64,000 nt of DNA from an uncultured Anaeroplasmataceae bacterium (GTDB lineage: Bacteria > Bacillota_I > Bacilli_A > Acholeplasmatales > Anaeroplasmataceae), in assembly GCA_910579215.1 (NCBI GenBank), contig CAJTTN010000006.1, positions 57,376-121,375 of the forward strand, read 5' to 3'. The position numbers and the translations under genes were made by a program. Of this stretch, positions 60,718-62,933 are shown piece by piece (position 1 is the stretch's first letter; every line of letters starts with the position of its first letter). Below the pieces are notes generated by a model. The model saw only the letters and a program-made list of their open reading frames with translations, made no database searches and was not told the DNA's origin.

Positions 60718-60976
60718 ATTAGAGGAAGCAAGAAGCATCATTCAGAATGTGGATCAGCAAATCATAGAATTATTTTTAAAGCGTATGCAAGCTGCAAAAA
60801 TGGTTGCAGAATATAAAATGGAAAATCAATTGCCAGTAGAGGATAAGCTAAGAGAACAAGAACTTTTAAAGAGAAATCTAAGGGCAGTTCCATTAGAGCT
60901 TCAGAAATACTATATACTATTTTTTGAAGGCATCCTTAAGGCATCTAAAGCCTATCAGGAGGATTTAATGGGATGA
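60710..60976 (+). CDS. Chorismate mutase (AroQ class)
   Basis: ~88-aa all-helical ORF; RBS ggagg before the ATG at 60710; the ORF-track start at 60638 overlaps aroA and is unlikely. Confidence 0.55.
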   Translation: MNKLEEARSIIQNVDQQIIELFLKRMQAAKMVAEYKMENQLPVEDKLREQELLKRNLRAVPLELQKYYILFFEGILKASKAYQEDLMG

Positions 60977-62391
60977 AGCAGTATGGCTTATTAGGAGAAA
61001 AGCTTGCTCATAGCTATTCAAAATGTATCCATACTTATATATTTCAAGCTCTGCATATAGAGGCTGAATATCATTTATTAGAGTGTAAAGAAGCAGAACT
61101 TCCTAAGTATATTGCAAAGCTTCGAAGAAAAGAATATAACGGATTTAATGTAACGATTCCTTATAAGAAAGTTATTATGAAGTATTTAGATGAAATCGAT
61201 GCTAAGGCAAAAAAAATTGGTAGTGTAAATACGATTTATATTAAGAAGGATAAGGTTATTGGAACAAATACAGATTATGATGGATTTTTTGAAACTATAA
61301 AGAAATATAAGATTGAAGTTAAAAATAAAGATTGCTTTATACTTGGTACGGGTGGAGCTTCTTTGGCGATATCACAGGTTTTATCGGATTTAGGAGGGAA
61401 TTGTCATTTTGTTTCTCGCACTCCAAGAGGGTCTGTTTTAGGATATCCAGATTTAGAAGCTAAAGAAATTGATCTTTTAGTCAATACGACGCCAGTAGGG
61501 ATGTTTCCTACTATTGATGAAAGTCCTGTAAGTAAGGAAATTGCGCAAAAAGCAAGGGTTGCGATGGATATAATTTTTAATCCTAGACAGACGAAGTTTT
61601 TAAGCTATGCCAATTCCTCTATTGATGGCTTTTACATGCTGATTATGCAGGCTATAAAGGCAGAAGAAATATGGCAAAATCAAATACTATCCTTAGATAT
61701 TGATAAAATGATTTCTATGATAAGTATACATCTTGTTCTTCCTTATAAGATTTGGTCTATTGTAAAGGATTTGAACTTTAATAAAATTACGGATGGCTGT
61801 AGTGAGGATGAGGTATACAATTTTGATAGTCAATATATATTGAAAATATCTTCTTATCCAGATAGACTCTTAAGAGAAAAAGAAAGAATGGATTGGCTTC
61901 AGAATAAAATTCCTACTGCTAAAAGTGTAGTCTATGAGGAATATAATTCTAGGTATTATTTTTTAAGAACCTGTATTCAAGGAGATAGCTTAGCTGCAGA
62001 ACGTTTTTTAAAGAATCCAAAAGTATTAATTGAAATTTTACCAACAATTATAAAGGTATTGAGAAGCTTAGATACTACCCAATGTCCCTTTAATTCTATA
62101 GAGAGTCAGGGCAATACATTTGTCCATGGAGATTTATGCTTGCCCAATATTTTAGTTAATAAAAAAAATGAGTTTGTCGGTTTTATTGATTTGGATAATG
62201 CAGGCTTAGGAGATTGCTGGTATGACTATGCTTGGCTATTGTGGAGTGTGGCATATAATCTAAAAACTAAAGCTTGGATTCCCTATCTATTAGATGTGTG
62301 TCAGCTCAAATTTGACGAAGAAAAATTTCGAAAATATATTCCTAAGTGTAACCTAGAGGAATTAGAAAAGGTGTTGCAGGAGAACATATGA
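60973..62391 (+). CDS. aroE: Shikimate dehydrogenase (AroE) fused to a C-terminal APH/choline-kinase-fold phosphotransferase domain
   Basis: N-terminal ~270 aa AroE (GLLGEKLAHSYS, NVTIPYK, GTGGA); C-terminal ~200 aa with HGDLCLPNIL catalytic loop and IDLDNAG (APH Brenner and DxD motifs). Confidence 0.7.
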   Translation: MKQYGLLGEKLAHSYSKCIHTYIFQALHIEAEYHLLECKEAELPKYIAKLRRKEYNGFNVTIPYKKVIMKYLDEIDAKAKKIGSVNTIYIKKDKVIGTNTDYDGFFETIKKYKIEVKNKDCFILGTGGASLAISQVLSDLGGNCHFVSRTPRGSVLGYPDLEAKEIDLLVNTTPVGMFPTIDESPVSKEIAQKARVAMDIIFNPRQTKFLSYANSSIDGFYMLIMQAIKAEEIWQNQILSLDIDKMISMISIHLVLPYKIWSIVKDLNFNKITDGCSEDEVYNFDSQYILKISSYPDRLLREKERMDWLQNKIPTAKSVVYEEYNSRYYFLRTCIQGDSLAAERFLKNPKVLIEILPTIIKVLRSLDTTQCPFNSIESQGNTFVHGDLCLPNILVNKKNEFVGFIDLDNAGLGDCWYDYAWLLWSVAYNLKTKAWIPYLLDVCQLKFDEEKFRKYIPKCNLEELEKVLQENI

Positions 62392-62933
62392 AACAAATAA
62401 AGATACAGGATAAAGCTTACACGATAATAAAGCTTTTGGGTAAGGGCAAAGGTGGCTACTCTTATCTTGTTACAGATGGGGCTAAGCAATATGTTTGTAA
62501 GCAAATTCATCATGAGCCCTGCTCCTATTATACCTTTGGGGATAAATTGGCATCAGAGCTTAGGGATTATGAGATTTTAAAAAATATAGGAATCCCTGTG
62601 CCAGAGTTACTAAGTGTGGATGAACAACAGGAACGCCTACTAAAGGAGTATATTGAGGGCCCTACCCTATATGATTTAGTAGTTGATGATAAAGTAAAAG
62701 ATGAGTATCTTACCCAAATTAAACAAATGTGTAAATTGTTATATGCCTCAAATATCAACATTGATTATTTTCCGACAAACTTTGTTGTACAGAAGGAAAT
62801 GCTTTATTATATTGATTATGAATGTAATTCTTATATGGAAGAATGGAATTTTGAAAATTGGGGTATTAAATATTGGTCAAAGACGCAAGAATTTATGGAT
62901 TATTTTAAGTCCTTAGAGAAAGGAGAATCATAG
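62388..62933 (+). CDS. Small protein-kinase-like (ePK/APH-like mini-kinase) protein
   Basis: Gly-rich loop LGKGKGGYSY, then VCKQ (Lys), hinge EYIEGPTL, IDYE; 181 aa; inside the aro operon. Confidence 0.5.
   Translation: MKQIKIQDKAYTIIKLLGKGKGGYSYLVTDGAKQYVCKQIHHEPCSYYTFGDKLASELRDYEILKNIGIPVPELLSVDEQQERLLKEYIEGPTLYDLVVDDKVKDEYLTQIKQMCKLLYASNINIDYFPTNFVVQKEMLYYIDYECNSYMEEWNFENWGIKYWSKTQEFMDYFKSLEKGES

Follow-up and report, generated by a model that had tools for sequence, protein, structure and literature searches.

Two kinases in the aro operon of an uncultured Anaeroplasmataceae bacterium, a short APH(3')-like domain fused to shikimate dehydrogenase and a 181-aa mini-kinase: possible accessory enzymes captured by the operon

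The aro operon analysed here lies in a 64,000-nucleotide stretch of DNA (the window) from an uncultured Anaeroplasmataceae bacterium (GenBank assembly GCA_910579215.1, contig CAJTTN010000006.1, positions 57,376 to 121,375 of the forward strand). Two predicted kinases are encoded between its shikimate dehydrogenase and chorismate synthase functions; the first is an aminoglycoside phosphotransferase (APH)-fold domain fused to the dehydrogenase AroE in a single protein of 472 aa (60973–62391), and the second is a protein of 181 aa with a protein-kinase-like fold, termed X (62388–62933). A sequence-only reading of the window had described both and had proposed the APH domain as a replacement for the missing P-loop shikimate kinase. 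The architecture was confirmed, whereas the comparative data argued against the proposed function, as distant relatives have the operon without any kinase, the standalone family of the APH domain has no link to aro genes, and one lineage without either kinase has kept aroA and aroC. The reading favoured here, to which about an even chance is assigned, is that both proteins are accessory kinases that act on small molecules and were taken up by the operon.

The 472-aa open reading frame (ORF) was found to join a complete AroE (residues 1 to about 250) in frame with a kinase of the short APH(3')-like kind that is likewise complete (residues about 255–472). The AroE half matched the Pfam model Shikimate_dh_N (PF08501) with 86.7 bits (E = 1e-24) and TIGR00507 with 192.5 bits, slightly below the cutoff of 200.2. 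It contains Ser14/Ser16, Lys65, Asp101 and the GTGGAS loop, K65 and D101 being the catalytic Lys/Asp pair, and its structure model resembled the AroE of C. difficile (5dzs) in a Foldseek comparison, with a template-modelling (TM) score of 0.89 and 39% identity, so that the profile match, the catalytic pair and the fold are all those of an AroE. The APH half scored 67.5 bits against Pfam APH (PF01636), above the gathering cutoff of 23.2, and 121.3 bits (E = 5e-35) against NCBIfam APH_3p (NF033068), below the curated cutoff of 205. The ATP-binding Lys291, Glu302, the HGDLCLPN motif (Asp387 and Asn392) and the IDLDNAG motif (Asp406) are all retained, and both motifs that the sequence-only reading had named, HGDLCLPNIL and IDLDNAG, were located. 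The same architecture was recovered in 21 further protein clusters, with 55–63% identity and no gap at the junction, those with a name being Anaeroplasmataceae, and the fusion lies inside the same operon in nine GTDB species representatives; a metagenome scan with the AroE domain as query added three loci. The species of the window itself was represented by a JGI contig (L107, 98–100% identical) and by an NCBI metagenome-assembled genome (MAG) labelled Acholeplasmatales (P0390). A sequencing or assembly frameshift artefact is practically excluded as the origin of the fusion, since the frame is unbroken in independent ENA, NCBI, Logan and JGI assemblies as well as in the nine GTDB species. Judged from these comparisons, the 472-aa protein is real and conserved as a two-domain enzyme, in which a helical linker joins AroE to a predicted ATP-dependent O-phosphotransferase of the short APH(3')-like type with its catalytic residues complete.

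The history of the operon was reconstructed from its relatives. Distant relatives (L013, L014 and L108/L109) have the gene order aroF-tyrA-aroB-aroA-chorismate mutase-aroE-aroC and lack a kinase, a dehydroquinase and any scar where AroE ends. Because the operons of these basal relatives contain neither activity, the ancestral operon would already have depended on a shikimate kinase and a dehydroquinase coded elsewhere. In a neighbour-joining tree of AroB, AroA, AroC and AroE, every kinase-bearing operon fell into one clade. The APH domain and X occur together in the window, L003/L004, L015, L018, L019 and L031; the APH domain is present and X absent in L001, L016, L017, L043 and L050; the APH domain is accompanied by a 61-aa remnant of X in L028; AroE is fused directly to X in L095; and neither kinase is found at the operon in L005/L006 and L106. 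The remnant in L028 (10740–10952) is located between the fusion gene and aroC and is apparently a gene in the course of loss. The possibility that the AroE-X fusion of L095 (2947–4248; P0026), known from a single Logan contig, records another, separate joining of a kinase to AroE was rejected, given that a DNA alignment showed it to be derived from an ancestor with both kinases by removal of the stretch of about 640 bp that encodes the APH domain.

The lineage without kinases (L005/L006 and L106), which is A. bactoclasticum-like, bears the scar of a deletion. L005 lacks exactly the 648 bp that code for the APH domain in L016, and its AroE ends in a 14-residue stub of that domain, FEDLKFILNLPSDI. 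L106, which comes from an independent sample, is colinear with L005 over the deletion junction (83% DNA identity), and the two therefore share one scar; X was not present at the operon in either of them. All seven aro genes are intact in L005 and L106, which differ by synonymous divergences (dS) of 0.64–0.94, with ratios of non-synonymous to synonymous substitution (dN/dS) of 0.03–0.16, the values for aroA and aroC being 0.135 and 0.098, respectively. The substrates of AroA and AroC exist only where shikimate is phosphorylated. The downstream-decay test for a shikimate kinase role consequently came out against that role, with aroA and aroC intact at dN/dS of about 0.1 over a dS of about 0.8. 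By this measure the pathway is under selection long after both kinases left the operon and, because aroA and aroC are kept under purifying selection without either operon kinase, another shikimate kinase must, on the comparative evidence, operate in this lineage. Since the ancestral operon had no kinase, the simplest reading is that this other enzyme is itself ancestral and present throughout the clade. Natural deletion lineages of this kind provide a cheap computational knockout test.

The fused APH domain belongs to a tight group of proteins of about 210 aa. The family profile aligned to APH(3')-IIIa in the PDB only over residues 7–134 and 186–258 (E = 2e-22), about seven residues standing where APH(3')-IIIa has the 51-residue segment 135–185, which contributes to the helical subdomain shaping the aminoglycoside pocket. 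The positions corresponding to K291, E302, D387, N392 and D406 are invariant over the aligned family. Standalone members (about 210 aa) share 47–59% identity with the domain of the window, and the fused domains are on average 61% identical among themselves, against 57–73% to their best standalone relatives. Only four positions are specific to either group, all of them conservative, and the net charge is equal (about −5). As identity among the fused domains does not exceed that to their best standalone relatives, with equal charge and so few and such conservative differences, the fused copy appears to show no sign of a new specificity. No aro gene was present within about 10 kb (less on short contigs) of any of the 39 standalone GTDB loci, and no conserved neighbour was common to them.

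These properties bear directly on the proposal that the APH domain, X or both constitute a third, non-homologous shikimate kinase, which would take shikimate from the fused AroE and hand shikimate 3-phosphate to AroA, either as the sole enzyme or as an isozyme beside AroK, on the model of the pair AroK and AroL in E. coli. This explanation, of which a redundant or channelling enzyme is the more tenable form, is considered unlikely. The kinase joined to AroE possesses every catalytic residue, the fusion has been kept throughout the 21 clusters and nine species with the domain under purifying selection, and no match to the P-loop shikimate kinase (Pfam SKI) was found among the ORFs of at least 100 aa in the window, nor was a SKI gene found within 10 kb of any fused AroE-APH locus; a type I or II dehydroquinase was likewise without a Pfam match among the same ORFs, and both absences agree with the sequence-only reading. 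The lack of the 51-residue binding segment also favours the proposal, a classical aminoglycoside being for that reason probably not the substrate of a short APH. Nevertheless, the fused domain is inseparable in sequence from standalone members that are never near aro genes, so that a shikimate kinase role needs the activity to be present in the whole standalone family, or else a promiscuous activity recruited without sequence change, and the acidic domain has no clade-specific basic residues for the carboxylate of shikimate. The kinase-free basal operons weigh in the same direction, and the persistence of aroA and aroC in L005/L106 rules out a sole essential kinase at least there; the fused domain is thus unlikely, as far as gene content and conservation tell, to be the only shikimate kinase. 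Moreover, a canonical SKI gene (Pfam, 97.6 bits) is located 1.7 kb from a standalone short APH in L057, the only match when approximate E. coli AroK and AroL sequences were used in BLAST searches over all retrieved loci, and since L057 has both, a canonical shikimate kinase and the short-APH family can coexist. The broader version of the proposal, in which the short APH(3')-like domain, possibly with X, would be a third non-homologous shikimate kinase and all its relatives of about 210 aa in uncultured gut Bacilli and Clostridia might act on shikimate, or more broadly on cyclitols, is rather unlikely. If the fused domain were a shikimate kinase, step 5 of the shikimate pathway, which drugs and herbicides target, would have been solved a third time independently, and an entire family whose members at present bear the labels 'kanamycin kinase' or 'phosphotransferase' would gain a function.

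Other features of the short-APH family point away from aromatic biosynthesis. Its members were found fused to NUDIX (P0067), Eis-like GNAT, zinc ribbon and helix-turn-helix domains. The only recurring neighbour of the standalone proteins, restricted to one spore-forming genus (L007–L012, L024 and L034), was a Ham1/RdgB-type nucleoside-triphosphate pyrophosphatase, with the short-APH gene always immediately upstream of it. This adjacency, together with the NUDIX fusion, hints at a possible link of the family to nucleotide or metabolite house-cleaning. The annotation of short-APH proteins as aminoglycoside kinases in resistomes is probably wrong, judging by the missing pocket segment, and a PADLOC search for defence systems gave no match for the APH domain. 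Two short-APH paralogues were observed on different contigs of one MAG, CANRSN01 (L026 and L035), and in L059 (9989–10565) the standalone gene is broken into two ORFs, a probable frameshift or pseudogene.

The second kinase, X, was described by the sequence-only reading as a mini-kinase with a Gly loop and a Lys that follows the fusion, and these features were found as described. Its recognisable residues are the Gly loop (18–23), Lys38, an HHEPC motif (41–45), Glu57, Asp126, Asn131 and Asp143. Profile matches to the N-lobes of Bud32, RIO and APH were weak and consistent, no Pfam or NCBIfam model reached its cutoff, and the score against the Bud32 family TIGR03724 was 32.5 bits, below the cutoff of 125. 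The AlphaFold (AF2) model of X has a minimal protein-kinase-like fold, with a predicted local distance difference test (pLDDT) value of 90.3, and Foldseek matched it with probability 1.0 to TTK, CDK, RIO2, PRPK and Bud32 (TM scores of about 0.5–0.6). The protein belongs to the protein-kinase-like fold superfamily, the Gly loop, Lys, Glu, Asp/Asn and Mg-binding Asp being invariant in 53 homologues, and the motifs invariant in its family are the Gly loop, KQIHHEPC, NIDYFPTNF and YIDYECN. The family, to which P0390–P0509 also belong, is large: clustering at 50% gave 903 representatives, of which 592 have E values below 1e-10, and more than 8000 close relatives, mostly of about 178 aa and with 65–76% identity, occur in MAGs named Ruminococcus, Lachnospiraceae and Clostridium. 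X is conserved far more strongly between Anaeroplasmataceae and these MAGs than the aro enzymes are, which suggests horizontal spread or a very constrained function. In Ruminococcus and Lachnospiraceae its neighbourhoods are of a housekeeping nature and unrelated to aro genes (LysR-X-DegV-Def and LacI-X-amino-acid kinase-GlnA), and no partner gene of the Kae1/TsaD type was found in the X neighbourhoods that were read. Its fusion partners include several GNAT types, HAD phosphatases, SnoaL, YunG, DUF3795, an alpha/beta-hydrolase and other APH-fold domains. X was rejected as a component of a defence system, its PADLOC kinase matches being only weak. It was also rejected that the short APH and X travel together elsewhere, because the X-APH fusions P0306 and P0310 carry another APH subfamily that has no BLAST match to the domain of the window.

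The resemblance of X to Bud32, PRPK, RIO and eukaryote-like kinases is one ground for a further explanation, in which both kinases are tied to the pathway though not as shikimate kinases, either regulating the aro enzymes as protein kinases or acting on quinate, dehydroshikimate or an antimetabolite. Loss of the helical substrate segment may leave the APH active site more open, and operon membership and fusion imply co-expression with the aro enzymes, both of which fit such a role. However, family members outside the clade have no association with aro genes, and both kinases have been lost repeatedly with the operon visibly unchanged, which makes this explanation quite improbable.

According to the favoured reading of accessory kinases, both proteins would come from large families with many fusion partners, elsewhere unconnected to aromatic biosynthesis, and would have been captured between aroE and aroC in the ancestor of one Anaeroplasmataceae subclade, one of them then becoming fused to AroE. 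They would be held by selection for a function of their own where they are present, yet would be dispensable to the pathway, and the real shikimate kinase, like the dehydroquinase, would most probably be encoded elsewhere in the genome. The substrate would then not be shikimate; as the fusion partners hint, the kinases most likely modify some different small molecule, for example a damaged metabolite, a xenobiotic or a compound resembling an antibiotic. Promiscuous domains are a classic source of false 'Rosetta stone' inferences (PMC4921024), and a fusion in a biosynthetic operon can mislead where the partner domain fuses with many proteins.

Several observations weigh against this reading. 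The APH domain comes exactly after the enzyme whose product is shikimate, and X, another kinase, is found in the same position. The dN/dS of the APH domain (0.09–0.23) is similar to that of the AroE domain (0.09–0.13), and the in-frame fusion has been kept although dS exceeds 1 (saturated). The AlphaFold model of the entire 472-aa protein, which like that of X supplies the structure prediction that the sequence-only reading had called for, gave a pLDDT of 96 and a predicted TM score (pTM) of 0.85, and these values over the whole protein suggest a fixed arrangement of the two predicted domains rather than a loose tether; the compactness of this model also speaks for a shikimate kinase. APH(3') enzymes phosphorylate the 3'-hydroxyl of a ring, a reaction fairly close to the 3-phosphorylation of shikimate. 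Finally, the canonical shikimate kinase of the fusion-bearing clade is one that we infer, and the kinase-less lineage could have gained aroK secondarily.

APH(3') enzymes (APH(3')-IIIa, 1J7I; APH(3')-IIa, 1ND4) share with the short APH the fold, the ATP-binding Lys, the alphaC Glu, HGDxxxxN and the Mg-binding IDL(D), and are its best sequence match in both the PDB and NCBIfam (at the E values given above, 2e-22 and 5e-35). The short APH nevertheless lacks two defining features of APH(3'), as it falls short of the curated cutoff (121 vs 205 bits) and is without the aminoglycoside-binding segment; it is also shorter (about 215 vs 264 aa) and is fused here to AroE. Its profile matched APH(2'') only weakly (E of about 3e-4). 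The bifunctional AAC(6')-Ie/APH(2'')-Ia likewise combines a kinase with a GNAT domain, and both kinase families of the window are repeatedly fused to GNAT domains (one of them Eis-like) and hydrolases. AroK and AroL, with the NMP-kinase fold (SKI, PF01202), have only the proposed reaction and the operon neighbourhood in common with the fusion; their fold is unrelated to those of the fusion and X, which have no P-loop or SKI match. X shares its minimal fold with Bud32/PRPK and RIO, and its best sequence match is the Bud32 of M. jannaschii (E = 6e-6). In contrast to Bud32, X remains below the family cutoff, has no Kae1/TsaD partner and has invariant motifs of its own in a Firmicutes host, and by these marks it is not a Bud32 orthologue.

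The shikimate kinase of the GHMP family in archaea (Daugherty et al. 2001, cited in PMC3018139) is a precedent for non-orthologous displacement discovered through operon context. In archaea this displacement coincides with the absence of aroK from the whole genome. The archaeal enzyme belongs to a superfamily other than APH, and in the present case a sister lineage manages without either candidate. AroE is often fused in other organisms, as in the CM-AroE (chorismate mutase-AroE) of C. acetobutylicum (3FBT), the plant DHQ-SDH and the fungal AROM, and CM-AroE fusions also occur among the relatives (L013; P0033–P0036). In L013 (6920–7746), the PDH_N and PDH_C parts of tyrA are encoded by two different ORFs, and AroE forms a 345-aa protein with chorismate mutase, like 3FBT. 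The partners in these proteins are enzymes of the same pathway, whereas the partner of AroE in the window belongs to a multi-partner kinase family with no other link to the pathway. The sequence-only reading knew of no APH-family shikimate kinase, and the literature search found no paper on an APH-fold shikimate kinase, on an AroE-APH fusion or on either kinase family, nor any on shikimate-pathway gaps in Anaeroplasma or Acholeplasma. What appears to be new here is the AroE-APH domain architecture, along with two uncharacterised subfamilies of known kinase folds, and two well-conserved kinase families of gut Firmicutes are thereby flagged, an APH(3') derivative of about 210 aa and a minimal kinase of about 178 aa.

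The order and coordinates of the operon given by the sequence-only reading were borne out by the ORF listing and by profile searches, the genes from aroF to aroC forming one co-directional, tightly packed operon on the forward strand. It begins with aroF (56589–57602, +), a 3-deoxy-D-arabino-heptulosonate 7-phosphate synthase with an N-terminal ferredoxin-like domain that catalyses step 1 (Pfam DAHP_synth_1, 266.8 bits, and DAHP_snth_FXD) and is 91–96% identical to the copies of relatives, followed by the prephenate dehydrogenase gene tyrA (57602–58432, +; PDH_N and PDH_C), the 3-dehydroquinate synthase gene aroB for step 2 (58429–59439, +; DHQ_synthase and DHQS_C) and the 5-enolpyruvylshikimate 3-phosphate synthase gene aroA for step 6 (59452–60717, +; EPSP_synthase, 299 bits). 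The AroQ-class chorismate mutase of 88 aa (60710–60976, +; CM_2, 61 bits) starts at 60638 in the ORF listing, and the ATG at 60710 was preferred on the basis of the 89-aa genes of relatives, which share the overlap of 8 nt with aroA. Within the fusion ORF, the AroE domain (60973–61734, +; residues 1–254, including the helical linker at about 243–255; Shikimate_dh_N and TIGR00507) precedes the short APH(3')-like domain (61735–62391, +; residues 255–472; Pfam APH and NCBIfam APH_3p), and X (62388–62933, +; weak Bud32/RIO/APH matches) is followed by the chorismate synthase gene aroC for step 7 (62935–63927, +; Chorismate_synt, 353 bits). The start codon of X overlaps the stop codon of the fusion ORF in the sequence ATGA, and both kinases are probably transcribed and translationally coupled with the aro genes. 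No regulatory leader was detected upstream of aroF with Rfam, two tRNAs being the sole Rfam matches in the window.

Directly upstream of the operon is a Serpin gene (55153–56391, +), whose product of 412 aa carries a signal peptide of the lipoprotein type and a Serpin domain of full extent (Pfam, 118 bits). The gene is missing at the equivalent position in the relatives L001 and L003; serpins are uncommon in bacteria. Further genes ahead of the operon (51470–54977) are an AP_endonuc_2 gene and two ABC exporter genes (ABC_membrane and ABC_tran), an arrangement that is kept in L001, L003, L014 and L106 as conserved synteny. At the start of the window, an RHS-repeat protein of at least 1237 aa (16–3729, +) is followed by a DDE transposase (3805–5478, −), and the GC skew falls locally at 4–6 kb.

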